64,000 bases of DNA from Candidatus Dadabacteria bacterium CSP1-2 (GCA_001443445.1 LDXN01000008.1:3707-67706), one strand, 5' to 3'. Counted from the stretch's first letter, positions 11,174 to 62,427 are shown. Program-made: numbers and translations. Notes: generated by a model not told the origin, from the letters alone.

Positions 11174-11201
11174 GTAGGGGTACGTTGCAACGTGCCCCTA
11201 C
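11174..11201. repeat. REP-like palindrome GTAGGGGTACGTTGCAACGTGCCCCTAC (intergenic, ald-obg)
   Basis: Near-perfect 28-bp palindrome. 27/28 identical to the copy embedded in RAYT copy C at 46550-46577, and both are followed by TATC. Confidence 0.85.
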
Positions 11202-11316
11202 TATCTATCTCGGTGTTTGTATCCGATTAAATTTTCAAAGGCCATAATCAAACCTCTACTCTTTCTCTACGCTCTCTGTGCACTCTGTGGCTAAACTGGA
11301 AATGGTATAACTAACG

Positions 11317-12327
11317 ATGGTCAAATTTGTAGATGAAGCGAAAATCTATGTGAAATCAGGTCGCGGCGGAAAGGGATGTGTGAGTTTCAGGCGCGAGAAA
11401 TTCGTCCCCCGCGGCGGTCCAAACGGAGGGGATGGTGGAAATGGAGGAAGCGTAATACTTATTGCAAGACAAAATATGTCCTCTCTTCTAGATCATCGTT
11501 ATAAGCAGCACTACAAAGCCGAAAACGGAGAGCATGGAAGAGGAAAAGACCAGCACGGGAAAAACGCACCAACGCTTTTAGTTCCTGTTCCCGTTGGAAC
11601 CGTTGTAAAAGACTTTTTTACAGGCGAGATTCTGGGAGACCTTACCGAGGACGGTGATACCCTCGTTGTCGCAAAGGGCGGGCGCGGTGGAAGAGGAAAC
11701 GCAAGATTTGCGACACCAACAAACCGTGCCCCAAGATATGCAGAGCCTGGTGAGGAAGCAGAAGAAAGAACCCTGCTTCTCGAGTTGAAACTCCTTGCTG
11801 ATGTAGGAATCATAGGTTTTCCTAACGCAGGAAAGTCAACGCTGATATCTAGAATCTCGGCAGCACGTCCCAAAATCGCTGACTATCCTTTTACCACGCT
11901 TATTCCCAATCTGGGTGTTGTAAGCTATAACGAAGGAAAAACATTCGTTGTTGCTGATATTCCAGGACTTATTAAGGGGGCACACGAAGGAACTGGTCTT
12001 GGAATAAAATTCCTAAGACACATAGAACGCACTAAGGTTCTTATCCATCTACTTGATTTGTCTCCGTTAACAGAGAGAGACCCAATAGAAGATTATCACC
12101 AGATGAATGGGGAACTTAAGGCATACAGCGCCGACCTTATTAAAAAACCACAAATTATCGCGCCAAATAAGATTGACATAACAGAAGCGAGAGAAAAACT
12201 TAAGGAAATCAAGACCTATTTCAACAAACTAGGGATTGAAGTATTTCCGATTTCCTCAGCAACTGGAGAAGGTTTACAGGTGCTAATCAAAGAAGTAGGA
12301 AAGAGATTAGAAATACTTAGAAATTAA
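11317..12327 (+). CDS. obg: GTPase Obg
   Basis: Obg fold N-terminus ([17 protein letters not shown]...[14 protein letters not shown]) and G domain ([10 protein letters not shown]). Confidence 0.9.
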
Positions 12328-12334
12328 CGCAGAA

Positions 12335-12973
12335 TCAACCACAGGCAACTATCTCTTTAAGTGAGCTATGTCTAAAAATTTCTTCTTCTAATACGTCTTT
12401 GGCAATTCTTTTTGGATTTTCTCTATCGAGGTGCCATTTTAATGGATTGTTTTGAATATATTCTCTGATTTTTTGTAATTCATCTTCATTACGGATTATA
12501 TGTTCATAATAATTACGTTGCCAGAATTTACGATGAAACGAGGGTAGTATATTGTGTTTTACCCCACGAATGTATTCGTTTGTGGTCATTGTTTTAAACC
12601 ATTGAATAATTTTACGTAGGGGCGAACCTATGTGTTCGCCCTGTAAATCCATGTCTTTGCCATTGTTATTTGGGCAGACACGCAGGTCTGCCCCAACATT
12701 TGTTTCAACAATTGTTATAATGCCATGAAAATGGTTGGGCATAATGATATATTCATCAATTTTTATATTTGTGAATTTGTTGGGTAATACCACCCACCAT
12801 TTTTCAATAATCTGCCCAGCAACATACAATTCCACTTTGTCATTTTTAATCTCGCCTAATAAACATTCTCTATTATGCGTGCAAATCGTTATAAAATACA
12901 CCCCCGGTTGTGAATAATCGTATTCTTTCAATCGTATTGACCTTCTATGATGAACATCAGGATTGTATTTCAT
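12335..12973 (-). CDS. REP-associated tyrosine transposase (RAYT, IS200-like HuH), copy A, intact frame
   Basis: 212 aa. N-terminal HRRSIRLKEYDYSQPGVYFIT, HuH motif MPNHFHGII, catalytic Tyr region WQRNYYEH. Carries an in-frame REP-like insert (12616-12694). Confidence 0.8.
   Translation of the reverse strand: MKYNPDVHHRRSIRLKEYDYSQPGVYFITICTHNRECLLGEIKNDKVELYVAGQIIEKWWVVLPNKFTNIKIDEYIIMPNHFHGIITIVETNVGADLRVCPNNNGKDMDLQGEHIGSPLRKIIQWFKTMTTNEYIRGVKHNILPSFHRKFWQRNYYEHIIRNEDELQKIREYIQNNPLKWHLDRENPKRIAKDVLEEEIFRHSSLKEIVACG
12616..12694. repeat. two REP-like hairpins inside the RAYT-A ORF (GTAGGGGCGAACCTATGTGTTCGCCC ... GGGCAGACACGCAGGTCTGCCCC)
   Basis: Palindromes read directly. The first unit is identical, as reverse complement, to the intergenic unit at 55041-55066. 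The insert length preserves the frame. Confidence 0.8.
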
Positions 12974-13098
12974 ACCGACCTTGCCATTTCTAACCTAAAC
13001 TCACACACAGACCAATATATCTCGTCTTGTTCCTGTTGTGTTAGACCAAGAATATCAAACACTACTTCCCCAGCGCTCAGCGGTTGGGTGGCGCAACC

Positions 13099-13320
13099 CT
13101 ACTTTGCAGATATGCTTTGTAATGTTCGCGCCCGAAGCCCAATAATCGTAATGCCTACAACTTCTTTTTTCTTCTCGTCGTAGCGAACGATAATGCCCTC
13201 GCCGATATCCGTTCCAACTGCTGGGCGGGGCTCGCCGACAGAAATGTAAAGCACATCCGCCTCCTCATCGTATTCCCAGCTTAGCGCTGGTGTACCCTCA
13301 AGGATTTTTAACGCTTCCAT
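13099..13320 (-). CDS. DUF2283-family small protein
   Basis: 73 aa. WEYDEEADVLYISVGEP matches the DUF2283 core. The ORF is visibly more GC-rich than its flanks. Confidence 0.55.
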   Translation of the reverse strand: MEALKILEGTPALSWEYDEEADVLYISVGEPRPAVGTDIGEGIIVRYDEKKKEVVGITIIGLRARTLQSISAK

Positions 13321-13321
13321 A

Positions 13322-13932
13322 TCACTTCCCTACATATACCTCGTGTTTAAAAATTTCATCTTCCAATGCATCTGTGGCAATTTTCTCTGGATTTTCTCTA
13401 TCTAAATGCCATCTTTGTGGATTATTTTGAATATATTCCCTGATTTTGTTTAATTCATCTTCTTTGCGGATAACGTGTTCATAATAATTTCGTTGCCAAA
13501 ATTTACCAACTATATCAATCCTATTTTCTTTTATGTACTTTAACCAATCATGTACGCATAGTGATTTAAACATTCCAATAATTTCACCAATTGTAGGGGC
13601 GGTCTTGCACCCGCCCTATTATTTGGGGCAATTGTAGGTGCAGGCCTTGCGCCTGCCCTATTATTTGGGGCAACCGCAAGGGTTGCCCCTACAAATATTA
13701 TCCCATGAATATGATTCGGCATAATGATGAACTCGTCTAGTTGTATATTGTCAAATCTGCTTGTTATTTCATGCCATTGCCGATTGACCATCTGCTTTAG
13801 TTGTGGATATTGTTCAAAATACAATTCTTTATTATCTGTACAAATCGTTATAAAATATGCCCCTGGCTGTGAATAATCGTATTCTTTCAATCGTATTGAC
13901 CTTCTATGATGAACATCAGGATAGTATTTCAT
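13322..13932 (-). pseudogene. RAYT copy B, split by a frameshift inside a REP-like insert (ORFs 13540-13932 and 13322-13573)
   Basis: The N-terminal ORF has HRRSIRLKEYDYSQPGAYFIT and MPNHIHGII and then reads through the REP units as VGATLAVAPNNRAGARP. The C-terminal ORF has WQRNYYEH and NNPQRWHLDRENP. The two frames overlap at 13540-13573. Confidence 0.75.
13593..13692. repeat. REP-like cluster of three hairpin units (with a tandem duplication) inside RAYT copy B
   Basis: GTAGGGGCGGTCTTGCACCCGCCC, GCAGGCCTTGCGCCTGC and GGGCAACCGCAAGGGTTGCCCCTAC. The motif CTATTATTTGGGGCAA is duplicated. Confidence 0.8.
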
Positions 13933-13942
13933 ACCGATTACA

Positions 13943-15076
13943 TTAAGTGTTACGATCTGATAGATAATCTTCTAAAGATTTATAAGTTTTTACAATCTTA
14001 AGTCCTTTAATTTCTAACCTTTTCTTTACCTCTTTTCGATTACGATCAACAAGTATTATCTCGCTTTTCTGAGGTAACATTGAAAGTAAAAGAAACGCAT
14101 TAGAATCCTCTGGTCTAAAACTGTATCCTATAATAACAAGTTCTTCAGTTTCTGACATAACTTTAATTGCAGATTGCCAAATTTCGTACATTTCTTTTCT
14201 TTCAAATGGCTTAATAAAAGAGGGCAACATACATCCTGGCCCATAGCCTCCTACATAACCCGGGTTTATTTTATCTGGATGTCTATCCAGTAATCCTTCA
14301 AAATGTAATTGATTACTTTCTCTATTGTCCATTACAATTACAATATAATCTCTACCACGCAGTTTCTCGATTGATCTAAGGCTAGGTGGTTCCCAATTAA
14401 TAGAACCATGCATCTTATGAATTCTTAATATGGAACACTTATTTCTTTTTTCTAAGCATTTCTTGTCCTCATCCCGTTCAAATTCTGAAACACCCACATA
14501 CCCATCCAAAGGAGACCAAATACCAGCACTAAGCAATGCTTTTTCTAAAACCAAATCGTAGTTAAATGTGATGACTTTATCACTTGAGTTGATAATTTTT
14601 GAAAACTTTTTAGCCAAGATATTTCCTTTAAGTCTAACAAAAACTAGGTAGAAATAGGTTTGAATAATATTTCTTATCCTTTCTAGTTCTGTTTTACTTG
14701 TAAACCACCAAGGTATCGCTGAATGAGGTTGAATATTAGATCCTTTTTTCTCAAACCGAATATTTGGACCATTTAGATGCAGGTCAATTAAAGTAATGAG
14801 ATATTCTAAGTTCTCTTTTATCTCGGTGGATATTTTATCAGAATCATACTTTTCAAATCGAGAAGTTGCTTCCTTTTCTAATCTTATTATGAAGTTATTT
14901 AAATTATTAAACCAATTAGCTCTCAACTCTTTATCTTCAGGATTTAAATCTTTTCTACTTTTTTCTCGTTTGTACGCTCTTTCTATACAACACCATAGTT
15001 CTTTCATCAAAGGACCATCAGCCACGGCCTTAGAAAATCCAGCACCTAACAAAAAGGTTCTGTTTATATTTCCCAT
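13943..15076 (-). CDS. standalone SIR2-like (SIR2_2 family) protein; candidate NAD-depleting defence effector
   Basis: 377 aa. N-terminal FLLGAGFSKA, ITFNYDLVLEKAL (TNYD-like), KMHGSINW (HGS motif) and C-terminal VIIGYSFRPEDSN, which match the SIR2_2 signature blocks recalled from memory. The ORF is AT-rich relative to its neighbours. Confidence 0.65.
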   Translation of the reverse strand: MGNINRTFLLGAGFSKAVADGPLMKELWCCIERAYKREKSRKDLNPEDKELRANWFNNLNNFIIRLEKEATSRFEKYDSDKISTEIKENLEYLITLIDLHLNGPNIRFEKKGSNIQPHSAIPWWFTSKTELERIRNIIQTYFYLVFVRLKGNILAKKFSKIINSSDKVITFNYDLVLEKALLSAGIWSPLDGYVGVSEFERDEDKKCLEKRNKCSILRIHKMHGSINWEPPSLRSIEKLRGRDYIVIVMDNRESNQLHFEGLLDRHPDKINPGYVGGYGPGCMLPSFIKPFERKEMYEIWQSAIKVMSETEELVIIGYSFRPEDSNAFLLLSMLPQKSEIILVDRNRKEVKKRLEIKGLKIVKTYKSLEDYLSDRNT

Positions 15077-15205
15077 CTACACACCAAATTGTCCAGTTTT
15101 ATGTTAATAGGGAAGTCCTCAAGTAGCAATGGTAAATCTTTGTGTTTAGTGAAGGGAGTTAAGAAAAGGTGGCAAATACGTTATCAAACCAAACCTAAAG
15201 TTAAA

Positions 15206-16069
15206 CTACACCCTTAGTCGGGCTTTTGCGATTTGGATTTGTTTTTGCCCCATATCCCTTGATCTCAATCTTTCCCATATAAAAACGCTCGTTATAGAGA
15301 CAAAGAGAATAATCGTTCCAACAGCGTTTATCTCTGGGGTCATTCCTCTTCGGAGCATTGCCCAAATCTGCATAGGAAGCGTGTTATCCCTTCCAGTGAG
15401 GAATATCGTCACGATGATTTCATCGAAAGATAAAGTAAATGCAAGTAAAGCTGCGCCAAGAAGAGCAGTTGTTATATTCGGAAGAACTACGCTGAAAAAT
15501 GCTCTCCATCTATTTGCCCCAAGGTCCATTGCCGCAAGAACCATAGATTTATCCATCGCTTTTAGACGTGCTAAAACCTCTAAATAAACTACTGGTATAC
15601 AGAATGTGATGTGTCCTATTGCCACTGTAATCAAAGAAAGATCAAACTTTGCAAACGAGCAAAAAAGAAGAAGTGCAACACCTGTTATGACACCTGGGAA
15701 AGTTATCGGCCATGTGGAAACCCTATGAAAAACGCCTTTTAGTGGGAATATGAACTCATCCATTGCAAGAGCAAGAAGGGTTCCCACAATCAGAGAAAAA
15801 ACAGTTGCAGCAATTCCCACTTTAATGCTGTTAAAGACTGCCTGCATCAGATCGTTATTATTTAGAAACTCCTTATACCAATAAAAAGTAAATTTCTTAA
15901 ATGGAAAATAACTGAAAGGGGCTTCGTTAAATGAAAATATAACTACGATAATAATGGGAGAATAAAGAACTAGGAAGAAGATAAACACATAGAGCCTGAG
16001 TATAAAATCTCCAGCACTAAATGATTTTGCTAGTTCGTGTGTTTTTTTAATCCTTAATTCTTCCTGCAT
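15206..16069 (-). CDS. potC: ABC transporter permease (PotC/PotI-like, polyamine)
   Basis: 287 aa, 6 TM, with an EAA-like loop (AAMDLGANRWRAFFSVVLPN). Confidence 0.8.
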   Translation of the reverse strand: MQEELRIKKTHELAKSFSAGDFILRLYVFIFFLVLYSPIIIVVIFSFNEAPFSYFPFKKFTFYWYKEFLNNNDLMQAVFNSIKVGIAATVFSLIVGTLLALAMDEFIFPLKGVFHRVSTWPITFPGVITGVALLLFCSFAKFDLSLITVAIGHITFCIPVVYLEVLARLKAMDKSMVLAAMDLGANRWRAFFSVVLPNITTALLGAALLAFTLSFDEIIVTIFLTGRDNTLPMQIWAMLRRGMTPEINAVGTIILFVSITSVFIWERLRSRDMGQKQIQIAKARLRV

Positions 16070-16101
16070 GATATTTATCTATGCCAAAATGTAATTTCAA
16101 T

Positions 16102-16206
16102 GTAGGAGCGCCATCCCTTCGACCGTTCGATCCTTCGATAAACTCAGGGCTCACGGCTCAGGAGACATGCTTGGCGCGACAGGTCGCGGCTAGAAGCCGC
16201 TCCTAC
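16102..16206. repeat. REP-like/MITE-like element with GTAGGAGCG...CGCTCCTAC termini in the potB-potC spacer
   Basis: 9-bp inverted termini about 90 bp apart, with an internal hairpin GCGCGACAGGTCGCGG. Confidence 0.7.
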
Positions 16207-16208
16207 CT

Positions 16209-17063: not shown

Positions 17064-17085
17064 GCCATTTAACTATAAAAATATT

Positions 17086-17167
17086 GTAGGGGCAACCCAT
17101 GCCTGTGGCGAGCCCAGTCGAGCCACGGTTGCCCAAAAGATAGGGCGGGTGCAAGACCCGCCCCTGC
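17086..17167. repeat. composite REP-like element (nested palindromes) in the potD-potB spacer
   Basis: GTAGGGGCAACC...GGTTGCCC encloses GTGGCGAGCCCAGTCGAGCCAC and is followed by GGGCGGGTGCAAGACCCGCCCCT. The last unit is identical to 62122-62144. Confidence 0.8.
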
Positions 17168-18312: not shown

Positions 18313-18338
18313 GTTTCCTTACCTCCTTGATTAGGGAT

Positions 18339-27009: not shown

Positions 27010-27163
27010 AACTTGAATTTACAATACTATAGTCTTATTTACAATATAAAATATAAAGACTAGATTCGATCACTATAAGTCTCCCATGCTAATATCTTAT
27101 GCTAATATTTGACAAAGGTAAGTTATTCACCTATATTTTGTAGTTTATTACATAAAAGAGTTG

Positions 27164-27236
27164 GGCCCATAGCTCAGCTGGTAGAGCTCCCGGCTCATAA
27201 CCGGAGGGTCCCTGGTTCGAACCCAGGTGGGCCCAC
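27164..27236 (+). tRNA. tRNA-Met (anticodon CAT); an elongator or a tRNA-Ile2 (lysidine) type cannot be excluded
   Basis: Cloverleaf read by eye: acceptor GGGCCCA/TGGGCCC, D-stem GCTC/GAGC, anticodon loop CTCATAA, T-arm CCTGG-TTCGAAC-CCAGG. G1-C72 is paired, so it is not an initiator. CCA is not encoded. Confidence 0.85.
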
Positions 27237-28527: not shown

Positions 28528-28933
28528 GGACGAGTGAACTGGGCGATCGCTGGGTTTTCCAATTTGGATAACCCAGAGGAAAGTCCGAACTCCATAGGGT
28601 AGAGTGCTGGGTAATACCCAGGTGTCGTAAGACAACGGAGAGTGCAACAGAAAACAAACCGCCTATGTTTTTCTATCCTCTATTAGAATTAGAAAAACAG
28701 GCAAGGGTGAAAAGGCAGTGTAAGAGACTACCGCGCAGAATGGTGACATTTTGCGGCTTGTAAACCCCACTCGGAGAAAGACCAAATAGGGAAGTAGCTG
28801 TTTTCTTTTTAAAGAGAACAGGCAGGTAGCCCGCCTGATGCTTCCGGGTAGGTCGCATGAGGCATCCAGAAATGGATGTCCTAGATGAATGATCGTCCAA
28901 GACAGAATTCGGCTTATAGGTTCGCTCGTCTCT
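28528..28933 (+). ncRNA. rnpB: RNase P RNA (bacterial type A)
   Basis: Conserved blocks GAGGAAAGTCCGAACTCCATAGGGTAG, GGGTGAAAAGGCAGTGTAAGAG and GACAGAATTCGGCTTATAGG. P4 covaries (AGTCCGAA / TTCGGCTT). The P1 helix pairs GGACGAGTGAAC with GTTCGCTCGTC. Confidence 0.85.
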
Positions 28934-34028: not shown

Positions 34029-34062
34029 AACCAATTCTCTATGGAAATATCGAATAAAAAAG

Positions 34063-34122
34063 TAGGGTCGAACATCGCGTTCGCCCATAATGGGAATGGG
34101 CAACCGCAAGGGTTGCCCCTAC
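34063..34122. repeat. REP-like pair (GTAGGGTCGAACATCGCGTTCGCCC ... GGGCAACCGCAAGGGTTGCCCCTAC) downstream of fmt
   Basis: The second unit is identical to the unit inside RAYT copy B (13670-13692). Confidence 0.8.
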
Positions 34123-42857: not shown

Positions 42858-42886
42858 GTAGAGACGACCCGACGGGTCGTCTCTAC
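42858..42886. terminator. 29-bp palindrome GTAGAGACGACCCGACGGGTCGTCTCTAC; bidirectional terminator candidate between the LapA-like gene and the ilvB-like gene
   Basis: 14-bp stem. Same palindrome as at 51627-51655. GTAG/CTAC termini. Confidence 0.6.
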
Positions 42887-45161: not shown

Positions 45162-45560
45162 CTACTTTTTAAAAACCCTTTTTACAAACCGGTCCTCATC
45201 AAGCTCCGAAATTAGATAGCCAATTTCATATTGATTACCTGGATAACAATAAAGCCTTATTCCCTGAGGTGTAATCAAAAACTTACCCTCCTTTTTTGTG
45301 CCATCGGGAAGCTTCACTTCATAAACCGTAAATCCCACAGTGCCTCCGCCAATATTCACAATCTTTCTTTCTTCTCTTAGTATTCTCACGCCTTCTGCTA
45401 TATCCCAAACCTTTGGATATATCTGACCTTTAACTTCTAGCTTCATATCAGTGTTATATTTAGTTTTCCGATCATGCCTGCTTGACGGGACAAGAATGTC
45501 TCGTCTATCCTGATTATTATGCACGGATAGGCGGGATTTTCGAATCCCGCCAGCCAACAA
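45162..45560 (-). CDS. hypothetical protein; probable real start at the internal MKLEVKG
   Basis: The N-terminal 36 codons of the ORF overlap hairpin repeats, so they are unlikely to be coding. Confidence 0.35.
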   Translation of the reverse strand: MLAGGIRKSRLSVHNNQDRRDILVPSSRHDRKTKYNTDMKLEVKGQIYPKVWDIAEGVRILREERKIVNIGGGTVGFTVYEVKLPDGTKKEGKFLITPQGIRLYCYPGNQYEIGYLISELDEDRFVKRVFKK

Positions 45561-46335: not shown

Positions 46336-46854
46336 TCATCTTTCGCTGAACCTTCTTGAGTCATAGTCTTTTAGTGTTTTACCTAAGATTTGTGGATTAT
46401 TTTGAATATATTCCCTGATTTTGTTTAATCCATCTTCATTACGAATTATATGTTCATAATAGTTACGCTGCCATAATGGAATTCCTGGTGTTTGATGAAT
46501 ATCATTAATTAGTATTGAATTGGAAACGGGTCTGCCAAATTGTTCAAATGTAGGGGCACGTTGCAACGTGCCCCTACTATCATTGTTAATAACAATAATA
46601 ATTCCGTGAAAATGGTTGGGCATTACAATATACTCATCCAATATCAAATTTCTTCGCAAGTCAAATGTTTTTAGCCATTCTGTTTTAACAATTTCGCCTA
46701 ATTGGTTTAATACTATTTCCCCACCTACTACATCACCAAAAACACATTCTCCTTTTTGTGTACATACCGTTATAAAATATGCCCCTGGCTGTGAATAATC
46801 GTATTCTTTCAATCGAACCGACCTTCTATGATGAATATCAGGATTGTATTTCAT
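46336..46854 (-). CDS. RAYT copy C, with an in-frame REP-like insert and a divergent/shortened C-terminus
   Basis: HRRSVRLKEYDYSQPGAYFIT, MPNHFHGII, WQRNYYEH. The insert is translated as DSRGTLQRAPTF. Confidence 0.75.
   Translation of the reverse strand: MKYNPDIHHRRSVRLKEYDYSQPGAYFITVCTQKGECVFGDVVGGEIVLNQLGEIVKTEWLKTFDLRRNLILDEYIVMPNHFHGIIIVINNDSRGTLQRAPTFEQFGRPVSNSILINDIHQTPGIPLWQRNYYEHIIRNEDGLNKIREYIQNNPQILGKTLKDYDSRRFSER
46550..46577. repeat. REP-like palindrome GTAGGGGCACGTTGCAACGTGCCCCTAC inside RAYT copy C
   Basis: 27/28 identical to the intergenic copy at 11174-11201. Confidence 0.85.
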
Positions 46855-47051
46855 ACTAACCTTACCCTCCTATATATTCACAAACACACACCTAACACAA
46901 TAAATCCCGTCCCCTTGTTCTTTTGAGCAACCGCAAGGGTTGTCCCTAAAAATATTATCACGTCTATATCCATTAACCCTGTATTCTCCCCCTTATAATA
47001 GAAACGAAATTTAGAATCTTTACTATTATAGGTAATTACAGAAGCCCTGGC

Positions 47052-49324: not shown

Positions 49325-49470
49325 ATCCGAGGCTGGAAAACCTCGGCTATCGTTATGTAATTATTTGTATGGAACCTTCGATAGTCGCGACTTTCCAGTC
49401 GCGGATTTTTATAATTGGAATTTATCTCGGCATGGCCTGCCCTGAGCCAGGTCCCCGATTTAATCGGGGA
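49325..49470. repeat. cluster of short GC hairpins (CCGAGG-CTGGAAAA-CCTCGG; CGCGACTTTCCAGTCGCG; CCCCGATTTAATCGGGG) in the DJ-1 to DUF255 spacer
   Basis: The 38-mer TCGATAGTCGCGACTTTCCAGTCGCGGATTTTTATAAT recurs at 51362-51400 with 2 mismatches. Confidence 0.75.
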
Positions 49471-51165: not shown

Positions 51166-51226
51166 AGGGAAATTTTATATCAGTAGGAAAGGCATTGCAA
51201 ATACTTTAACGGATTAGGGAAGATTA

Positions 51227-51428
51227 TAGGCGGGGATGGGAAACCCCACCTATCCGCATATTTCAATTTCCACCAGAAATAGGCGGGACTTTCCAGTCCC
51301 GCACTGATGGGCGGGGTTGGAATACCCCGACTTCGTTGTTTTATTTGCTTGAATATAAACATTCGATAGCAGCGACTTTCCAGTCGCGGATTTTTATAAT
51401 GGGGATATATATCGCGCCTAGAAGGCGC
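51227..51428. repeat. cluster of hairpin family C units (GCGGGACTTTCCAGTCCCGC, CGGGGTTGGAATACCCCG, GCGACTTTCCAGTCGCGG, GCGCCTAGAAGGCGC)
   Basis: Read directly. Part of a 955-bp non-coding spacer. Confidence 0.75.
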
Positions 51429-51626
51429 ACCTACGATTCATTTGGGTTGTTGTTTCCCATACTCGTAGGAGAGGCTTCCTTCGATGAACTCAGGACAGGT
51501 CTAGGCTCGAACCAACTGTGGTAAGCCAATACATGTAGGGCTCATTCCCCGAATGAGCCTTGACATTGAAGGCTGATGAAGGTATCAGCCCTACTCTAAA
51601 GATTTTTATGAGCCCGACGAATTATT

Positions 51627-51667
51627 GTAGAGACGACCCGCCGGGTCGTCTCTACTTTATTTATTCA
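51627..51667 (+). terminator. intrinsic terminator: GTAGAGACGACCCG-C-CGGGTCGTCTCTAC followed by TTTATTTATT
   Basis: 14-bp perfect stem plus T-tract. No annotated plus-strand gene upstream. Confidence 0.6.
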
Positions 51668-51811
51668 GATCTGTCCAGTTTTCGATTCTTTTTAGATGTA
51701 AATCTAGTTTTTAGGAAATCGTATTGCTCTAGTCTTAATCCAATAAGACCTGAGTTAATGATTTGGGTAACTGATGTTCTACACTTATACACTTAAGTAG
51801 GGATATAGGAT

Positions 51812-51960
51812 CGTCATTCCCGCAGTCCCCGATGAATTCCTCTTGGATAGCGGGAATCCATTTTGCTTTGTCATTCCCAAACGTTACCCGATAAAAACAT
51901 TCTGGTACAAGCTTTATTGGGAATCCAATGGATACCCGATAACTGCACTCGGGTATGACA
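51812..51960. mobile_element. two tandem family D elements (CGTCATTCCCGCAG...AGCGGGAATCCA; TTGTCATTCCC...GGGAATCCA...CCGATAA...CGGGTATGACAG)
   Basis: Same architecture as 38189-38271. Confidence 0.55.
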
Positions 51961-52016
51961 GAAGCGACGGATGCACGATTAACCTTCTGCACGCATTAAG
52001 CCTTGTCCAGCATTGG

Positions 52017-52119
52017 CAGGCGGGGTTGGAAAACCTCGTCTCATTGTGCAGGGTTAGAAAACCCTGCCTATCAGTGTATGTTAAGATTCTGGGGGATAGG
52101 CGGGACTTTCCAGTCCCGC
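52017..52119. repeat. hairpin family C cluster (GGCGGGGTTGGAAAACC, CAGGGTTAGAAAACCCTG, ATAGGCGGGACTTTCCAGTCCCGC) abutting the rlmD stop
   Basis: The last unit is identical to 51279-51302. Confidence 0.75.
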
Positions 52120-52120
52120 T

Positions 52121-54704: not shown

Positions 54705-54763
54705 TGAACCTATTCTACCCGAAGTGACCGCGGTTATGTTTGAAATAAAAACGAATTATTGCT

Positions 54764-54800
54764 GTAGTAGGGGCAGGTTTGAATCCTGCCCCTACAGTAG
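54764..54800. repeat. REP-like palindrome CTGTAGTAGGGGCAGG-TTTGAAT-CCTGCCCCTACAGTAG
   Basis: Read directly. Confidence 0.75.
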
Positions 54801-54912
54801 ACATGATTTGGTACAAGGTTGAATTCGTCTAATTGTATGTTGGTATAACTCTCTGGTATTTTGCCATCACAGTTGCTTGACGTCATCCCTGTTTTTTTAT
54901 ATCCGCCGTTGG

Positions 54913-55066
54913 GTAGGTAACGAGCAGACCTAGCGCCTGCACTATTATTTTGGGCAACCGTGGCTCGAGCGGGCTCGCCACAGGCAAGGCTTGCCCCTAC
55001 AAATAATATCCCGTGTATTTGATTCGGTTTGTGAAATAAAGGGCGAACACATAGGTTCGCCCCTAC
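54913..55066. mobile_element. RAYT relic: composite REP-like array enclosing about 40 nt homologous to the RAYT HuH coding region
   Basis: 55001-55040 reverse-translates to ...FHKPNQIHGILF, matching MPNHIHGIIF of copy B. It is flanked by GTAGGTAACGAGCAGACC..., GGGCAACCG[GTGGCTCGAGCGGGCTCGCCAC]...TTGCCCCTAC and GGGCGAACACATAGGTTCGCCCCTAC. The last CTAC supplies the argG stop codon. Confidence 0.7.
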
Positions 55067-56280
55067 TTACCTTTAACCTTTTCCAGAAGTTTCTTTATCG
55101 AAAGTCTTAATGCATTTATCCTTATAAACCCTGTTGCATCCTTCTGATTATAGACCTTTTCTTCCTCGAAGGTAGCCAAATCCTTCTGATATAAAGAAAA
55201 TGGAGAACGCCTGCCTGCAACTGATACAGTTCCTTTATAAATCTTCATTCTAGCCGTTCCAGACACATTCTTTTGAGACTCATTTATAGCAGCCTTCAGC
55301 ATTTCCATCTCAGGTGAATACCAAAACCCATAATAGATAAGCTCCGAAAATTTAGGAGTAAGCATGTCTCTTAGATGCATGACCTCTCTGTCCATTGTAA
55401 GAGACTCAACTGCTCTGTGTGCAGCATGAAGAATTGTACCACCCGGGGTCTCGTAAACACCGCGTGATTTTATTCCGACAAATCTGTTTTCCACCATGTC
55501 TACTCTTCCAACGCCGTTTTTTCCAGCAATTTTGTTTAGTTTATGAAGAAGTTCTACTGGAGAAAGTTCCTCCCCGTCAATCCTTACCGGCACACCCTTT
55601 TCAAAATCTATGTCAATGTAGGTAGGCTCGTTTGGAGCTTTATCGGGGGAAACTGTCATCTCAAACATATTTTCAGGTGGTTCAGCCCAAGGGTCTTCAA
55701 GTATTCCACCCTCGTAGCTTGTATGAAACAGGTTCCTATCGCAGCTATAGGGTTTTTCTTTAGTTACGGGAACGGGAATCCCATGACTTTTTGCATAGGT
55801 CATAAGATCCTTTCTCGATTTAAAATCCCACTCACGCCACGGAGCTATAACGCCAATAGCTGGGTTAAGCGCATAGTAGGTTAATTCAAACCTTACTTGA
55901 TCGTTGCCCTTTCCTGTTGCGCCATGTGATACCGCATCCGCATTTTCTTTTTTTGCAATTTCAATCTGCTTCTTTGCAATCAGAGGTCGTCCAAGAGAGG
56001 TCCCCATTAGATACATCCCTTCATAAACTGCGTTCGCGCGAAGGGCTGTAAAAACAAAATCCCTTACAAATTCATCTTTCAAATCCTCTACATACACTTT
56101 ACTGGCGCCTGTTTTTATAGCCTTTTCTTTTATCTCCTCTAAATCCTCCCCTTGACCTAGATCAGCAACAAACGCAATAACCTCTGCTTTGTATTGTTCA
56201 ATAAGCCATCTGAGTATCACGGATGTATCAAGGCCGCCAGAGTAAGCGAGTATTATTTTCCTAATATCTCCCATTTTCAA
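55063..56280 (-). CDS. argG: argininosuccinate synthase
   Basis: [10 protein letters not shown]-loop, 405 aa type I ArgG. Confidence 0.9.
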
Positions 56281-56376: not shown

Positions 56377-56904
56377 TCATTTACTCATCTGTTTATCCAG
56401 TTGACTTCCCCTAAGGTCATAAAAATAGAATGTTGCACCCTTACTCTCATAAAATTTCTCAAGTGAAAAACCGATATATTCTAGCTTTGCATCGTCATCA
56501 CCCCTATACGTAGTACGTTTCACTTCCTGGGAAAGCTTGCAAACAATTGGAATTTCGTTTGTAGGACTTTCATGACATAAAAATCGAAGTTCAAATTCGC
56601 CATCTACAGACATATTCCTTGGAATAGCAAACCCTACAGCCATCCTAGCATTTATTAGTTCAATTACCATGAGCTTAACCTTTCCAAAACCTTCGGCCTC
56701 CCCTCCGCCCTCAACCTCAAATGTATAGCCGTAAAAGTTAACGGGTATGTTACTCTCCTTCATCGAATCGAGATACCAATAATCCTCTGAAGTTAGCACA
56801 CACATAATCTGAAACATTTTAGCCTCCTGAAAACTACTAAATTCAAACCTTAAACTGGCGTAAGTAATGATAACATGCAATGAATACAGTCTAAACAAGC
56901 CCAA
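56377..56904 (-). CDS. hypothetical protein
   Basis: No recognisable motif. The probable start is the internal MFQIM. Overlaps the pgeF stop. Confidence 0.4.
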   Translation of the reverse strand: MGLFRLYSLHVIITYASLRFEFSSFQEAKMFQIMCVLTSEDYWYLDSMKESNIPVNFYGYTFEVEGGGEAEGFGKVKLMVIELINARMAVGFAIPRNMSVDGEFELRFLCHESPTNEIPIVCKLSQEVKRTTYRGDDDAKLEYIGFSLEKFYESKGATFYFYDLRGSQLDKQMSK

Positions 56905-57571
56905 TGAAGCTCAGTTGCTTCCCTACATTTTCACCATCCCTTCTATATGAATGAAAATCACTATTGCATTTTGTACAGATGTTCATTACCTCAATGTCCT
57001 TTACTCCCTCTTTAAATAGATTAATTCGATTCGCTCCCTTTAAATCAAGGATGTATTTAAGATTGCTTTTTCTAAATAAAAAGTCCTTCCAATTATCGAA
57101 TTTATCAATGAATTGAGACGCTACATCCTCACCAACCTCATAACAGCAACCTCCAATAGATGGACCAACCACGCAAGAAACTCCTGATGGTTCGATTCCA
57201 AATCTTTTTTTCATCTCAGTGAGGGTAGCTATCGGGACCTGTGAAAGGGTTCCTCGCCAGCCTGCATGAACTACAGCAACTAAAAGACCAGTTTTCTCCG
57301 CAAAAAGTATAGGAACACAATCCGCAGTAAAAACCCCAATACCTATTCCTCTTAAACCAGTTATAATCGCATCCCCTTTTTCCTTTGACATATCTTTGAA
57401 TCCATCATTTATGACGAAAACATCACTGCTATGTGTTTGATTTATAGTGGCAATGTTACTCAACCCGAAATATCTTGCAATATCAGATACGCTCCCATTG
57501 AATTTTTTGTTAGAAAATCCGTGAACTATCCCGCCGATTTTAGATAAACTCTGAGACTTAATCCAACTCAT
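56891..57571 (-). CDS. pgeF: purine nucleoside phosphorylase/laccase-domain protein YfiH (PgeF)
   Basis: DUF152 motifs TADCVPILF and HAGWRG. Confidence 0.85.
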   Translation of the reverse strand: MSWIKSQSLSKIGGIVHGFSNKKFNGSVSDIARYFGLSNIATINQTHSSDVFVINDGFKDMSKEKGDAIITGLRGIGIGVFTADCVPILFAEKTGLLVAVVHAGWRGTLSQVPIATLTEMKKRFGIEPSGVSCVVGPSIGGCCYEVGEDVASQFIDKFDNWKDFLFRKSNLKYILDLKGANRINLFKEGVKDIEVMNICTKCNSDFHSYRRDGENVGKQLSFIGLV

Positions 57572-58515
57572 TTTTCTAATAATTCAATCACAGCTTTAAT
57601 ATCATCAGGAATGGGGGCAGAGAATTCCACATTCTCTCCAGTCCTTGGATGCTTGAAGTTAAGCGTTAACGCATGAAGTGCCTGCCTTGCAAGGCACTTT
57701 GAGAGCCTATCCAACAACTCGGATTTATGTTTTTTTACACCATACATCTTATCACCCAATATCGGATAACCATTTTCAGCAAAATGGACCCTTATCTGAT
57801 GAGTTCTTCCAGTTTTAGGCTCAACTTCAACCATTGTCACTTCTTTATACCTTTTTATAACCCTCCATAAAGTAAACGCCTCCCTTCCTGCTCTGACCTT
57901 TGTTGTCATCTTAATTCTATTTTTAGGGTGCCTTCCTATGAGAGAAGAAAATGAACCTGATTCTCCTTTAATATCACCAACTACTAATGCTAAATACTTC
58001 TTTTTGGTTTCGTGTGATTTGAATTGATTTACAAGAGAATTATGAGCAATGTCGTTCTTGGCAACTACCATAACGCCAGAGGTGTCTTTGTCAAGCCTAT
58101 GCACTATCCCCGGTCTAAGTTTTCCCCCAATTCCCGAAAGACCAAGACATTTGTAAAGGAGCGCATTTACAAGAGTACCGTCTTTTATTCCAGCCCCAGG
58201 ATGCACTGTTATTCCCTGAGGCTTGTTAACCACAATAATGTCATCATCCTCATATATAATTGGAACCTGTATATCTTGGGGCTGAGCCTCCAGAGGTTCA
58301 GGGGAAACAAAAGTTACACAAACGTCCTCACCCCCGCTTAGTTTCTTCGATGGTCTTATTGGTTTGCCCTCTACTAAAATAAGACCTTCGTCCAGCATTC
58401 TTTTTATTTGAGAACGAGTAACACTTGTAAGAAGAGACGAAATAGCAACATCTGCTCTCTTGCCTGATAAGTCTTTTGGTATTTGAAACCTTTCTATGGA
58501 TTCTTCTTTATTCAT
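57568..58515 (-). CDS. rluD: 23S rRNA pseudouridine synthase, RluD-like (RluA family)
   Basis: S4 domain N-terminus, catalytic HRLDKDTSG. Confidence 0.9.
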   Translation of the reverse strand: MNKEESIERFQIPKDLSGKRADVAISSLLTSVTRSQIKRMLDEGLILVEGKPIRPSKKLSGGEDVCVTFVSPEPLEAQPQDIQVPIIYEDDDIIVVNKPQGITVHPGAGIKDGTLVNALLYKCLGLSGIGGKLRPGIVHRLDKDTSGVMVVAKNDIAHNSLVNQFKSHETKKKYLALVVGDIKGESGSFSSLIGRHPKNRIKMTTKVRAGREAFTLWRVIKRYKEVTMVEVEPKTGRTHQIRVHFAENGYPILGDKMYGVKKHKSELLDRLSKCLARQALHALTLNFKHPRTGENVEFSAPIPDDIKAVIELLEK

Positions 58516-58564
58516 ATTTAATTGCTTGGATAGATTTTAAAAAAAGTACTTTAATTCTGTATAA

Positions 58565-59734
58565 TTAGTGCTTACTTCCACCAGCTTTATATTGTATCTT
58601 TTGTTGATATAGCCTCATAGCCGAGCTTGCTATTACTCCAGGAACATCCTTATTTTTTGAAAGTGCTTGAAGTTCCTTATCCCTTAGGTGTCTTATAAAG
58701 CGAAGTGCTAAAGGTGGTGGTGTCTTAGGATTGTTAACCAAAGCTACTTTGACCTGGTAGTTTCTGGTCCATCTACGAGTAGAAGCAATCTGATTTAACA
58801 CCTCTTCGTTTGCGGTTTTTGATTGTACAATTAGTATAATCTCCATATCGGTAACACCTGGGTTCCTTATTGCAGAAACGGCTACCATTCTATTTGAATC
58901 ACGAATTAGGATCGTCCGTGCCGCTCTATTCCCTAAAAGAGCAAGTTTGATCCTTTGAGGAATGTTCATCTGCTTTATTTTATGAAATAGACTTTCACGC
59001 CTTCGCTCAACAGCCTCATCTATCTCTTCCCCAGTTTCCTCTGTAAGATCATTAGAGAAATCAATGCCATCGAGAAAAGATTCATTGATATCTTCAAGTA
59101 AAGTAGATTTAGCTTTCTCTTCTTCATCATCTGACGATATATCAGAATCAATAGCCTCTTCAGGAACATCCTCACTCGGATCATTTTTACTATCATATTT
59201 TGGATAATTGAGAGGAGCTTCACCTTTTTTAGCTAAATAAAGCTTAAAGATGGAAATAACCCTATCTAGTTTAGAGCGACTTATAGAAGGGTTCTTGGTT
59301 AGTGCTTCGACTATAACTTCTGACCTTAGGATACGTTTTTGATCATCTGTTATTAATTCGATAATGGGCGAACTATGAACTGTCTCGGCAAGAAAGGCGA
59401 TGGTATCATCATTTGTGGAAGGATTTAGTATTATCTTTTGAAGTTGAAACTCACTCGCTGTATTTCTAGCAATATAATCGAGGAGCTTAGGTGAAGTTGA
59501 TGTATCATCAAGTACTGTTCCAATTACTTCATCCGGCATTGATTTTAGAGAAGCCTTAGCCTCTTTACTTATTTCTTCATCTTCATCCAGAGTCAGGCTA
59601 TATAGAACCTTAACAAGATTCTTTGGCGGAATAGTAATAAGGCCCCGTGCCGCATTAAGACGAAGCTCTTTTGGAAGAGATGGATCAACAAACTCTTTTA
59701 AATAATCAGGAAGGTTCTTAATAAAATCTACCAT
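58565..59734 (-). CDS. hypothetical protein with helical repeats and an acidic linker
   Basis: 389 aa. D/E/S-rich central linker. No identifiable catalytic motif. Confidence 0.45.
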   Translation of the reverse strand: MVDFIKNLPDYLKEFVDPSLPKELRLNAARGLITIPPKNLVKVLYSLTLDEDEEISKEAKASLKSMPDEVIGTVLDDTSTSPKLLDYIARNTASEFQLQKIILNPSTNDDTIAFLAETVHSSPIIELITDDQKRILRSEVIVEALTKNPSISRSKLDRVISIFKLYLAKKGEAPLNYPKYDSKNDPSEDVPEEAIDSDISSDDEEEKAKSTLLEDINESFLDGIDFSNDLTEETGEEIDEAVERRRESLFHKIKQMNIPQRIKLALLGNRAARTILIRDSNRMVAVSAIRNPGVTDMEIILIVQSKTANEEVLNQIASTRRWTRNYQVKVALVNNPKTPPPLALRFIRHLRDKELQALSKNKDVPGVIASSAMRLYQQKIQYKAGGSKH

Positions 59735-59961
59735 CGTTTATTAGATTTATTTTATGTAAAAAAACCGATGTATACAAACATAAAATCAGCGATGATTTGA
59801 TACTGGAGTGGAGTAAGAAAAGAAGACTATTTCTTTTAAGACATCTTTCCCAATCAACAAATAAGTGAATCAGAGTCAAACTAAAGTTCAAGATTGAATT
59901 AGAAAATGATGTTCACTCCAGCAACCTGCACGGTATCATTAAATTTAAAGAAAGTAATAGA

Positions 59962-60100
59962 AGTCATTACGAGGGAGTGAAACGACCGAAGCAATCCCTT
60001 GAATACTCAGGCAGAGGGGTATAATGAGCCTACATAGTGTTAGCAATGGATTGCTTCACGGAGTTTACACTGAGTTTATCGAAGTGCTCGCAATGATAAC
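59962..60100. mobile_element. MITE-like element, family B copy 3 (GTCATTACGAGGG ... CTCGCAATGATAAC; subterminal GAAGCAATCCC / GGATTGCTTC)
   Basis: Read directly in a 470-bp spacer. Confidence 0.65.
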
Positions 60101-60203
60101 ATTTTCTCGTCCTCTCAATGAGAGGGTTGAGAACCTAACCAACCCCATCAGATTCCGCCAATGACAGAGAAAACCTTGTAGCAAGTTACAGAGAATTATC
60201 AAA

Positions 60204-61142
60204 TTAAATTCGAATAACACAGGGTATATGTTTTACTTTTTTTATCTTTTTGGATTTTGTAGAACTAAGCCGAGTTTCAACCATGTCCAAGGCACTGCCA
60301 TGACTAACTGATATTTCTAAAAAACCTGTACTTCCAATAATTGCTAGAAATTCACCCTTTGGAACTTCTGCATAAAATTGTGATATTCCCTTTATTACCT
60401 CACCACCTATATAAACCCTTGACTTAGGTTTTATGAGCTGAGCAGGTATGTTCGTAATAAGGTTTCCGAAAGAGTCTATGTAAATAACCTCGCCTATTAT
60501 TTCACTTCCCCGAACCACTGGCTCTTTAATCTGAAGCTTTACGGGCTTCCTTACTTGCCCGCCTAAATCATCTGCTGGTACACCGAGAGAAAGGTGAGCG
60601 GCGGCAGGAGCAAAAACGTCCCTTCCATCAAAAGTAGAACCCACTTTAGGAAGAATGTATTTCGGGTTTGAAATCTTGAATGCCTTAACTGATTTGAATT
60701 CACTATAAATAAAGGTAAAAATCCCGTTATCAGGTCCTAGAAAAATATAGTTGTCAGCTTGTACAACTATAGGCTTTCTTCTACTACCCACTCCAGGATC
60801 AACAATCACTATATGAATAGTCCCTTGAGGAAAGTAATGGTAGAAATTCCTAAGAATGAAAGCAGCTTGAAAAACATCCTGAGGTACTATTTCATGCGTG
60901 ATATCAGTAATTATTACTTCAGGATTTATTGAAAGTATAACCCCTTTCATCGCCCCACTATAGTGATCTTTTAATCCAAAATCGGTTGTTAAGGTTATGA
61001 TGCGTTCCATTTTAGTTTTCCATGTTTTCTTCTCATTCACTAATTCCCAATTCCTAATCCCCAATTCCCAAACTATAATATAAACGTTACACAATTTAAC
61101 GTGACAATAAAATGAAGCTCCATATCCTGGGTTCGGGAACAT
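60204..61142 (-). CDS. SAM hydroxide adenosyltransferase family protein (DUF62)
   Basis: LTTDFG, DPGVG. The probable start is the internal MERIITL (near 61020). The upstream ORF extension overlaps the MBL gene start. Confidence 0.75.
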   Translation of the reverse strand: MFPNPGYGASFYCHVKLCNVYIIVWELGIRNWELVNEKKTWKTKMERIITLTTDFGLKDHYSGAMKGVILSINPEVIITDITHEIVPQDVFQAAFILRNFYHYFPQGTIHIVIVDPGVGSRRKPIVVQADNYIFLGPDNGIFTFIYSEFKSVKAFKISNPKYILPKVGSTFDGRDVFAPAAAHLSLGVPADDLGGQVRKPVKLQIKEPVVRGSEIIGEVIYIDSFGNLITNIPAQLIKPKSRVYIGGEVIKGISQFYAEVPKGEFLAIIGSTGFLEISVSHGSALDMVETRLSSTKSKKIKKVKHIPCVIRI

Positions 61143-61855
61143 GCATTCCTTATGAAAGAAGAGGGTCTTCAGGGTATGCCCTTAGGCTTTCAAAGTCAAC
61201 CATTTTACTCGATTGCGGAAATGGAACTACTTGGAAGCTTGGAAAAGTTGGCATAAATTACCTAGAGGTAAACCACATATTTTTATCGCACTTTCATCCT
61301 GATCATACGGCAGATTTAATCCCATTTCTATTCGCTACTAAATATGCCCTAGTTAAGAGAGTAAAACCGCTTTATATCTGGGGATCGAGAGGATTTAAAG
61401 GTTTCTTCTCGGCACTAAATAATGCTTACAATGATTGGATCCAGCCAGACAAATTAAACATTGAAGAACTAGATGAAGGTATAATGAAATTTGACGACTT
61501 CACACTAATTTCAGGAAAAACCCTTCATATAGACAGTAGCCTTGCTTATCGGATTGAAAGTGAAGGTAAATCTATAGTTTATTCAGGTGATACTGACTAT
61601 TCAGAATCATTAGTTGAGCTTGCAAGAGATTCTGATTGCTTAATTATTGAATGCTCAATGCCCGACAAATTAAAAGTTAAAGGTCACCTTACTCCAACCG
61701 AGGTATCAAAGATAGCTAATAAATCGAAAGCTAAAAGGCTTATAATTTCGCACCTCTACCCAATCTGCGATGAATTGGATGTTATTAAGGTGATTAGAGA
61801 ACAAGTGGATGCAGAAACAATCTTGGCTGAAGATTTATTAGAGGTAGAAATCTGA
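61112..61855 (+). CDS. MBL-fold metallo-hydrolase
   Basis: HFHPDHTAD motif. Confidence 0.8.
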   Translation: MKLHILGSGTCIPYERRGSSGYALRLSKSTILLDCGNGTTWKLGKVGINYLEVNHIFLSHFHPDHTADLIPFLFATKYALVKRVKPLYIWGSRGFKGFFSALNNAYNDWIQPDKLNIEELDEGIMKFDDFTLISGKTLHIDSSLAYRIESEGKSIVYSGDTDYSESLVELARDSDCLIIECSMPDKLKVKGHLTPTEVSKIANKSKAKRLIISHLYPICDELDVIKVIREQVDAETILAEDLLEVEI

Positions 61856-61856
61856 A

Positions 61857-61885
61857 GTAGGGGTGGGTTTGAAACCCGCCCATAC
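61857..61885. repeat. REP-like hairpin GTAGGGGTGGGTTTGAAACCCGCCCATAC immediately after the MBL gene stop
   Basis: Read directly. Confidence 0.7.
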
Positions 61886-61948
61886 AGAGTATAAAAAATG
61901 CCATACAATCCTGAAAAACAACTAGACGTAGTATTCGACTGAAAGAAT

Positions 61949-62427
61949 ATGATTATTCAGAGCCAGGCATATTTTATAACGAGTTGCACTCATAATAGAG
62001 AATTGTATTTTGAACAATACCCACAACTAAAGCAAATTGTAAATCTACAATGGCAAAAAATACCAGTCAGATATGCCAATATACAATTAGTAGGGGCAAC
62101 CCTTGCGGTTGCCCAAAAGAATGGGCGGGTGCAAGACCCGCCCCTACAATTGGGGAAATCATTGGAACGTTTAAATCACTGTGCGTACATGATTGGTTAA
62201 AATACATAAAAGAAAACAGGATTAATACGGTTGGTAAATTCTGGCAACGTAATTATTATGAACACATTATCCGCAAAGAAGAACCGTTCAAACGTACACG
62301 TGAATATATTCTAACCAATCCCTTACGCTGGCATTTGGACAGAGAAAATCCCTATCGGAAAGGCGAAGATGATTTTGATAGATGGCTTGAGAGCCAATTC
62401 AAAGATGGAAGGGTCTCTCAATTTTAA
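61949..62427 (+). pseudogene. RAYT copy D: 5-prime truncated, HuH region deleted, frameshifted within a REP-like insert
   Basis: ORF1 ...AYFITSCTHNRELYFEQYPQLKQ... jumps from ANIQL straight into the REP translation VGATLAV. ORF2 has WQRNYYEH and NPLRWHLDRENP. No HuH motif remains. Confidence 0.7.
62090..62147. repeat. REP-like pair (GTAGGGGCAACCCTTGCGGTTGCCC ... GGGCGGGTGCAAGACCCGCCCCTAC) inside RAYT copy D
   Basis: Units shared with 17086-17167 and 13593-13692. Confidence 0.8.

Follow-up and report, generated by a model that had tools for sequence, protein, structure and literature searches.

REP hairpins within and around RAYT-type transposase genes in a genome of Candidatus Dadabacteria

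The stretch of 64,000 nucleotides from Candidatus Dadabacteria bacterium CSP1-2 considered here (GCA_001443445.1 LDXN01000008.1:3707-67706; the whole of it is called the window below, and positions are counted from its first letter) carries four Y1-transposase genes, recognised by translation and designated RAYT A to D (REP-associated tyrosine transposase, also TnpA_REP), together with three relics of such genes. It also carries short G+C-rich hairpins of the type known as repetitive extragenic palindromes (REPs), of which there are approximately 24 units at approximately 15 sites between 11.17 and 62.15 kb once imperfect copies are included. The two are physically intertwined; in RAYTs A, B, C and D the region separating the HUH motif from the half of the protein with the catalytic tyrosine contains in-frame REPs, each RAYT holding its own type, and REPs of the A, B/D and C types recur outside the genes. 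An earlier reading of the window, made from the sequence alone, had named REP elements in at least 12 places and had tied GTAG-type hairpins to RAYTs, with some copies inside them; there is a real element at each coordinate that it cited, and the four RAYTs with in-frame REPs bear out the connection. The genes and their internal REPs are as follows.

12335-12973, minus strand: RAYT A, intact, a 212-residue Y1 (HUH/Tyr) transposase with two in-frame REPs between HFH and Tyr172
12616-12641, plus strand: REP in RAYT A, GTAG followed by GGGCGAAC-CTATGT-GTTCGCCC; the gene strand encodes GEHIGSPL
12672-12697, plus strand: REP in RAYT A, GGGCAGAC-ACGCAG-GTCTGCCC, then CAAC; the gene strand encodes VGADLRVCP
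13322-13932, minus strand: RAYT B, frameshifted in the window only, by a 1-nt deletion within its first REP
13593-13692, plus strand: REP trimer in frame within RAYT B, with units at 13593-13616, 13634-13658 and 13667-13692
46336-46854, minus strand: RAYT C, 172 residues; HUH and Tyr are kept and the helix after the REP region is replaced
46550-46577, no strand assigned: double-foot REP in RAYT C, GTAGGGGCACGTTGCAACGTGCCCCTAC
61898-62427, plus strand: RAYT D, a B-like pseudogene (about 85% DNA identity) with frameshifts and a 45-nt deletion
62090-62147, plus strand: REP doublet in RAYT D, GTAG-GGGCAACCCTTGCGGTTGCCC, spacer, GGGCGGGTGCAAGACCCGCCC-CTAC

The basic plan of a unit is an 8-bp G+C-rich stem, a loop of 4-6 nt and a GTAG foot. 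When the window was scanned strictly (8-bp G+C-rich stem, one mismatch at most being allowed, loop of 3-9 nt, and an exact GTAG foot at the 5' side or CTAC foot at the 3' side), 17 units were found, where 20 Markov-1 random sequences gave 0.1 on average. The heptamer GTAGGGG occurs 20 times against 4.6 expected (the G+C content of the window is 39.9%), and 16 of these occurrences fall within REP units; the other four (3966, 19996, 30687 and 52483) equal the chance expectation. The pattern GTAGGGG-N10-40-CCCCTAC, which the sequence-only reading had proposed as a search, is present three times in the window against 0 expected (none in 100 shuffles). Hairpin potential, on which that reading also depended, is present in all copies; the folding energies of the units in single-stranded form are -9 to -14 kcal/mol (z-scores -3.5 to -6.6). 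They occur in three arrangements: as single units, as double-foot palindromes (GTAG...CTAC; 11174, 42858, 46550, 51627 and 54767) and as inverted doublets with outward feet and a short spacer (17086-17167, 34062-34122, 51535-51594 and 62090-62147, plus the clusters within RAYTs), while some further units have the degenerate feet CTGC, CAAC or ATAC. The copies are dispersed and inverted, not arrayed, which does not favour a reading as CRISPR or tandem repeats. Scans of the window for Rfam families and tRNAs returned only RNase P RNA (bacterial class A, 315 bits, 28531-28932) and a tRNA-Met gene (27163-27236), with no known RNA family at the repeats.

Where a single REP family had been described, we find several, with at least five sequence types, each of them corresponding to the internal REPs of a different RAYT. 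Identical copies are found at distant sites of the window, and the types are distributed as follows.

A type, GGGC[GA][AG]AC-6 nt-GT[TC][CT]GCCC: 12620, 12672 and 55041, with a degenerate copy at 34066
B/D group, comprising GGGCAACC-CTTGC-GGTTGCCC, GGGCGGGT-GCAAG-ACCCGCCC and GGGCAGGC-GCAAG-GCCTGC[AC]C: 13593-13692, 17086-17167, 34098, 46925, 54913-55000 and 62090-62147
C-type double-foot palindrome, of the sequence given above for RAYT C: 11174 and 46550
Second double foot, GTAGGGGCAGGTTTGAATCCTGCCCCTAC: 54767, with a degenerate copy at 61857
Third double foot, GTAGAGACGACCCG-N-CGGGTCGTCTCTAC: 42858-42886 and 51627-51655
Separate doublet type: 51535-51594

The RAYT-like character of the Y1 open reading frames (ORFs) is supported by several tests. 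RAYT A matches Pfam Y1_Tnp, and it scores 63 bits (E=2e-17) against the NCBIfam equivalog model REP_Tyr_transpos (NF047646), a match that is split by the in-frame REP region, compared with 19 bits (E=1e-3) against an IS200 model whose cut-off is 55. A search of the PDB with a single RAYT protein sequence gave no match; with a profile of 45 homologues, the only significant match was E. coli TnpA_REP (4ER8, E=2.3e-6). Foldseek, given an AlphaFold2 model of RAYT A (pLDDT 82.8, pTM 0.77), ranks the same protein first (4er8_A, E=4e-6) and the transposases of IS608 and ISDra2 below it. In the alignment of 45 homologues, H81, W151, E157, R161, Y172 and N176 (RAYT A numbering) do not vary, and conservation is 90% or more at H83, Q152 and H158. 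Of these, H81-F-H83, Y172 and N176 align with the HUH motif, Y115 and N119 of the E. coli protein, and W151, Q152, E157, H158 and R161 align with its W94, Q95, E100, H101 and R104, which are the residues that contact GTAG, Y115 being the catalytic residue (PMC6006769).

The four genes are in different states of preservation. RAYT B is an intact ORF of 203 residues in contigs of sibling strains (L001, L005 and L007), while RAYT C is probably defective. The 45-nt deletion in RAYT D takes out the HUH motif (DEFIIMPNHIHGIIF) and has an endpoint exactly at a GTAG foot; alignment of RAYT D 62030-62095 with RAYT B 13690-13750 places this at the foot of D's first internal REP. Such a position fits a break at the REP boundary, although it is not proof of one. 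RAYTs B and D, together with two of the relics, form one recently expanded lineage.

The internal position of the REPs is not peculiar to this genome. We compared 78 related loci from Deltaproteobacteria, Chloroflexota, Nitrospirota, Bacteroidota, Bacillota, Francisella, Saccharibacteria and others, and between the two motifs found a perfect 8-bp hairpin with a preceding GTAG in 58, a perfect hairpin with a following CTAC in 50, and both together in 41. The reading frame of these hairpins is nearly always the same. Their commonest loops, CTGCGT and ACGCAG, are mutual reverse complements, and consequently the internal pair forms an inverted doublet whose feet point outward, which is a property of the whole protein family. 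To judge the pairing independently of the stem as a whole, sequences were picked solely by the foot and the first four stem bases; the left hairpin was fully paired in 56 of 71, and across 42 distinct sequences 95.5% of cells pair, with changes on both sides in 6 of 8 pairs, a level of covariation that none of 500 shuffles reached. The covariation shows selection on the internal hairpins, and conservation with compensatory changes across many phyla suggests that the internal doublet is more than an accidental insertion. In RAYT A, the REPs with the spacer between them correspond to residues 91-117, a surface loop and the one internal part of the AlphaFold2 model that has low confidence. The RAYT B trimer includes a 42-nt module of spacer plus REP that has been tandemly duplicated, and the internal loop of several RAYT homologues likewise grows by repeat gain; six of the related loci (L009, L030, L039, L057, L073 and L079) have tandem half-hairpins or whole REP modules between the internal REPs, up to about 250 nt.

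Outside the four genes, REPs are found in spacers and in the relics of RAYT genes.

11174-11201, no strand assigned: double-foot REP of the C type with one stem mismatch, between divergent genes and upstream of obg
17086-17167, plus strand: REP doublet of the B/D type; left REP at 17086-17134, right REP at 17143-17167 with a CTGC foot
34062-34122, plus strand: REP doublet between convergent genes, with GTAG and an imperfect A-type hairpin, an 11-nt spacer, then a B-type hairpin and CTAC
42858-42886, no strand assigned: double-foot REP, GTAGAGACGACCCGACGGGTCGTCTCTAC, between convergent genes; present in five strain contigs
46914-46958, minus strand: B-like RAYT relic, IIF plus a degenerate REP at 46925-46948, 70 nt upstream of RAYT C
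51535-51655, plus strand: REP doublet (51535-51594, GTAG-hairpin...hairpin-CTAC) followed by a double foot (51627-51655, GTAGAGACGACCCGCCGGGTCGTCTCTAC), in a repeat-rich spacer
54739-54862, minus strand: RAYT relic, NIQLDEFNLVPNHVY, double-foot REP at 54767-54795, then IIRFYFK
54913-55027, minus strand: RAYT relic, PNQIHGILF plus a REP cluster, with a composite REP at 54952-55000 and a degenerate partner REP at 54913-54942
55041-55066, minus strand: A-type REP, reading GGGCGAACACATAGGTTCGCCC and CTAC on the plus strand
61857-61885, no strand assigned: degenerate double-foot REP, GTAGGGGTGGGTTTGAAACCCGCCCATAC, directly after a gene for a metallo-beta-lactamase-fold protein and upstream of RAYT D

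The sites at 42858-42886, 51627-51655 and 51535-51594 were absent from the earlier list. Sensitive tblastn searches recovered RAYT coding remnants beside three of the spacer sites (46914-46958, 54739-54862 and 54923-55027), and the REPs at 46.93, 54.76 and 54.92-55.00 kb are parts of RAYT gene relics, not independent insertions. The same searches detected no RAYT remnant at the REPs at 11.17, 34.06, 42.86, 51.5-51.65 and 55.04 kb. The REPs at 46.93, 54.76 and 54.92-55.00 kb, which the sequence-only reading had listed as spacer copies, came in with copied genes. Extragenic clusters match the in-frame clusters of RAYTs B and D base for base, coding spacer included, and in general the REPs of the window concentrate around RAYT genes and relics.

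Two of the extragenic clusters have a nested structure. A 24-nt block, CTGTGGCGAGCCC(AG/GC)TCGAGCCAC, is present at 17103-17126 and, on the reverse strand, at 54960-54983; the two are identical at 22 of 24 bases and both sit between the loop and the 3' arm of GTAGGGGCAACCCTTGC|GGTTGCCC. The composites at 17086-17134 and 54952-55000 thus consist of GTAGGGGCAACCCTTGCGGTTGCCC with the block inserted. Palindromes within palindromes had been reported from the sequence alone as a frequent arrangement; both cases are real, with the inner coordinates displaced by 2-5 nt, yet 'often' overstates what is one event in two copies, given that both composites carry the same block. Sibling strains L001 and L002, which are about 99.6% identical overall, lack the block at 17.1 kb and have instead a REP trimer with an extra 42-nt module of spacer plus REP. 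This strain difference is the clearest sign of recent change at the locus. The block has only two copies, both in one REP setting, so that its presence at 17.1 kb is explained as well by gene conversion from the copy at 55.0 kb as by a new insertion. In one metagenome contig (L159), a different palindrome is nested in the same loop.

Comparison of strains shows variation at other sites also, and the structure of the REP cluster differs at 55.04 kb as it does at 17.1 kb. The foot of the 55041-55066 REP supplies the TAG stop codon of an ORF at 55063-56280 on the minus strand; in contig L208 a shorter, decayed version takes the place of this REP, and the site is the junction of diverged and identical flanking sequence. 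The doublet at 34062-34122 is identical in eight strain contigs. Among five strain contigs, the REP at 42858-42886 holds all of the substitutions in a 106-nt stretch; in the comparison with L219, L220 and L222 these are a stem change of C to A and a change of GTAG to GTGG. The strain contig adjoining RAYT D ends inside a repeat, and strain contigs bearing RAYT C showed the same gene spacing as the window. The genome comes from groundwater, and the locus recurs in aquifer and reactor metagenomes. A cyanobacterial origin, which 40% G+C and palindromes like those of Nostoc had suggested at first sight, was rejected on the recurrence in aquifers and on an Obg protein with 100% identity to that of Candidatus Dadabacteria CSP1-2.

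The reach of the REP sequence itself is much wider. Exact copies of GTAGGGGCAACCC-N-GGTTGCCC are present in at least 120 metagenome contigs with G+C contents of 39-66%, which shows that the element is not confined to the window, as the sequence-only reading had supposed it would not be. Among the 98 matches that lie away from contig ends, 88 have no RAYT-like ORF within 150 nt. These contigs represent many unrelated organisms, and none of them carries the specific doublets of this genome or the 24-nt block.

The REPs share the window with other repeats. The item at 16.10 kb, previously counted among the REPs, is a different element:

16102-16206, no strand assigned: 105-nt element lying in an ABC-transporter operon, its 9-nt inverted termini being GTAGGAGCG...CGCTCCTAC

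It resembles a MITE (a miniature transposable element with inverted repeats) and is distinct from the short REPs; a partial relative at 51466-51520 shares GTAGGAG..TCCTTCGAT[AG]AACTCAGG. A second family of hairpin doublets, which the earlier list also lacked, has inward ATAG/CTAT feet and the plan GGCGGGG-TTGGAAAA-CCCCGCC CTATC, 25-35 nt, GATAG GCGGGAC-TTTCC-AGTCCCGC. There are five copies (45485-45550, 49327-49404, 51230-51302, 51310-51389 and 52048-52119), for which no cognate transposase was identified. Several of these repeats meet at 51166-52120, a gene-free spacer of 955 nt that contains at least four kinds of hairpin repeat: REP doublets, a double-foot REP, ATAG-type doublets, and units of the form GTCATTCCC...GGGAAT.

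There is also a variable island beside RAYTs A and B (12335-15076). The window and most strains carry here a DUF2283 gene, RAYT B and a gene with a SIR2_2 domain; in contig L003 (5925-14452) their place is taken by a chimeric A/B RAYT, two genes for DUF2283, DUF4258, a methylase/endonuclease of the MmeI type and a PLD/SNF2 helicase. The two gene sets have the look of alternative cargo for defence, carried at a hotspot that RAYTs flank. Elsewhere, an IS481-type (rve) transposase upstream of fmt replaces the radical-SAM gene of the window in two contigs (L210, 1119-2282; L213, 204-1367).

In interpreting the locus, we consider it probable that the elements are REPs and REPINs (REP doublets forming hairpins) belonging with RAYT (TnpA_REP) tyrosine transposases of subclass 2.4, or RAYT group 4, in Candidatus Dadabacteria. 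The subclass was assigned by the match in two features, double-foot REPs and in-frame REPs between HuH and Y. By analogy with the TnpA_REP enzymes of E. coli, Stenotrophomonas and Marinomonas, a RAYT would bind the folded hairpin on single-stranded DNA, with the GTAG foot read as a guide, and would cut at a CT or CA close by, forming a 5'-phosphotyrosine link; one such CT is present in the CTAC foot. Rejoining of the strands would then copy or rearrange REP doublets. GTAG had been taken in the sequence-only reading for the tetranucleotide that RAYTs cleave; characterised enzymes use it as a recognition or guide motif, and their cuts fall at CT or CA dinucleotides next to the REP (PMC8266576; PMC6006769). 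Some of the spread in the window took a second route, in which RAYT genes were duplicated and decayed, their internal REP clusters being left behind as 'extragenic' repeats. REP clusters are in addition remodelled by the gain and loss of 42-nt modules of spacer plus REP and by insertion of the 24-nt block into a loop.

Several observations sit uneasily with this interpretation. RAYT A is the sole clearly intact RAYT of the window, and matches to NF047646 score 58-63 bits, below its curated cut-off of 80. Four RAYT genes and three relics in 64 kb are unlike the usual single copy per type per genome, although that is a usual trait and not a strict criterion (PMC5581495). At least three spacer copies are gene relics and not transposed REPs; the density of REPs is low and patchy, with none at 1-11 kb of the window or in the 9.8 kb upstream of it. 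Strain comparisons offer no clean contrast of filled and empty sites, those at 34.06 and 42.86 kb being filled in all strain contigs. Binding and cleavage by the RAYTs of the window are, moreover, carried over from what is known of other TnpA_REP enzymes.

Another explanation is that the dispersed copies are mostly fossils: RAYT genes duplicate and then decay, their G+C-rich REP clusters outlast them, and the REPs are immobile on their own. The coding remnants at three spacer sites are what this would leave behind, as is the 17.09 kb cluster, with its faithful copy of the RAYT B/D in-frame cluster and coding spacer; the proximity of REPs to RAYT genes, with none in 20 kb of neighbouring DNA, and the recent expansion of a single lineage comprising B, D and relics also agree with it. 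Yet five sites (11.17, 34.06, 42.86, 51.5-51.65 and 55.04 kb) are without a detectable remnant, the doublet at 34.06 kb joins an A-type to a B-type unit, no RAYT of the window goes with the GTAGAGACG type, and 88 of 98 metagenome matches stand apart from any RAYT-like ORF. As an account of most copies, we think it possible but hold it to be the weaker explanation. We find it harder to accept that the hairpins serve the host in regulation, as terminators, mRNA stabilisers or sites of protein binding, and are retained for that role, with an incidental link to RAYTs. Certain positions are suggestive, those at 34.06 and 42.86 kb being between convergent genes and those at 16.1 and 17.09 kb inside an ABC-transporter operon, and one REP provides a stop codon; such roles for REPs are documented in other bacteria (PMC3733652). 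However, there is no T-run after the stems, the same units occur in frame within transposase genes, they are decayed or polymorphic, and REP types match RAYTs. A regulatory role could be secondary, and would leave the origin of the elements unexplained.

Least credible of all is that the palindromes are chance products or artefacts of composition, which we regard as vanishingly improbable; the four isolated GTAGGGG heptamers, equal in number to the chance expectation, are all that can be said for it, against 17 strict units where 0.1 would be expected, a GTAGGGG-N-CCCCTAC pattern seen in none of 100 shuffles, and identical copies at distant sites. Within the preferred reading, that of REPs and REPINs belonging with subclass 2.4 RAYTs, a more speculative extension can be entertained, although we would not expect it to be correct. 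The in-frame doublet may be a selected master copy from which the extragenic clusters are derived, which would account for the constancy of its position and frame and for the compensatory changes of the stem across phyla; and the 24-nt GTGG...CCAC block may be an ultra-small mobile element that targets REP loops. If so, the block would be a parasite of a parasite, comparable to the small dispersed repeats (SDRs) of cyanobacteria.

The main features of this system were already described between 2013 and 2018, and the known picture is unchanged. What the window adds is a wider host range for those REP/RAYT systems in which REPs lie within the transposase gene, now including Candidatus Dadabacteria (a candidate phylum that metagenomes have made known), and a compact, naturally polymorphic locus in which an intact RAYT, a strain-specific frameshift, a pseudogene, relics and free matching REP doublets are found together. 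It bears on the origin and spread of REPs, in that some 'extragenic' REPs are clearly leftovers of transposase genes. Of some note are how densely RAYT genes and relics lie, the fossil share of extragenic REPs, the internal doublet, fixed and covarying across phyla, and the nested 24-nt block.

The structural features described here have counterparts in other systems. The SDRs of Nostoc, which Elhai et al. (2008) are reported to have described as elements of 21-27 nt inserting into other small repeats, resemble the 24-nt block in the REP loop; here there are just two copies, in the same context. With the IS200/IS605 family there is a common Y1 HUH transposase fold and the use of hairpins with a 5' guide tetranucleotide. 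However, the hairpins here are internal to the gene and not at the ends of an element, the RAYT copies are 45-85% identical and not near-identical, and the homology of B and D, the only pair compared at the DNA level, stops at the limits of the ORF. The TnpA_REP of the E. coli REP/BIME system (bacterial interspersed mosaic elements; 4ER8) and the REPtrons of Corneloup et al. (2021) have the same fold, the same catalytic and GTAG-contacting residues and, by analogy, the same substrate of hairpin plus GTAG. Sequence identity with the E. coli protein is nonetheless about 20%, and the REPs of E. coli, whose stems are bulged, flank a single-copy gene and do not occur inside it.

Closer parallels are found among the GTAG REP families catalogued by Di Nocera et al. 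(2013), which include head-to-head dimers, feet that form TAG stops and REPs within ORFs (PMC3733652). With these families and with the REPINs of Bertels and Rainey (2011), the window shares the unpaired GTAG foot, stems of 6-13 bp, head-to-head dimers, sites between convergent or co-directional genes, the TAG-stop foot and REPs inside ORFs. The stems here differ from those families, as far as compared, there are fewer copies per kb, and several copies are relics of transposase genes. The nearest likeness is to subclass 2.4 of Quentin et al. (2018), equivalent to RAYT group 4 of Bertels et al. (2017), which is scattered across phyla. Its REPs have a GT[AG]G foot and three G-C pairs at the base of the stem, or a double-foot form with 5' GT[AG]G and 3' C[TC]AC, and they occur in the tnpA_REP frame between HuH and Y, in a variable peripheral region between beta3 and alphaC (PMC6006769). 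Canonical and double-foot REPs, in-frame REPs, a variable loop and a distribution over scattered phyla are all seen here. The differences are that Candidatus Dadabacteria is absent from both surveys, that the window combines four genes and three relics in 64 kb with the recent expansion of one lineage, and that its extragenic clusters copy the in-frame cluster.

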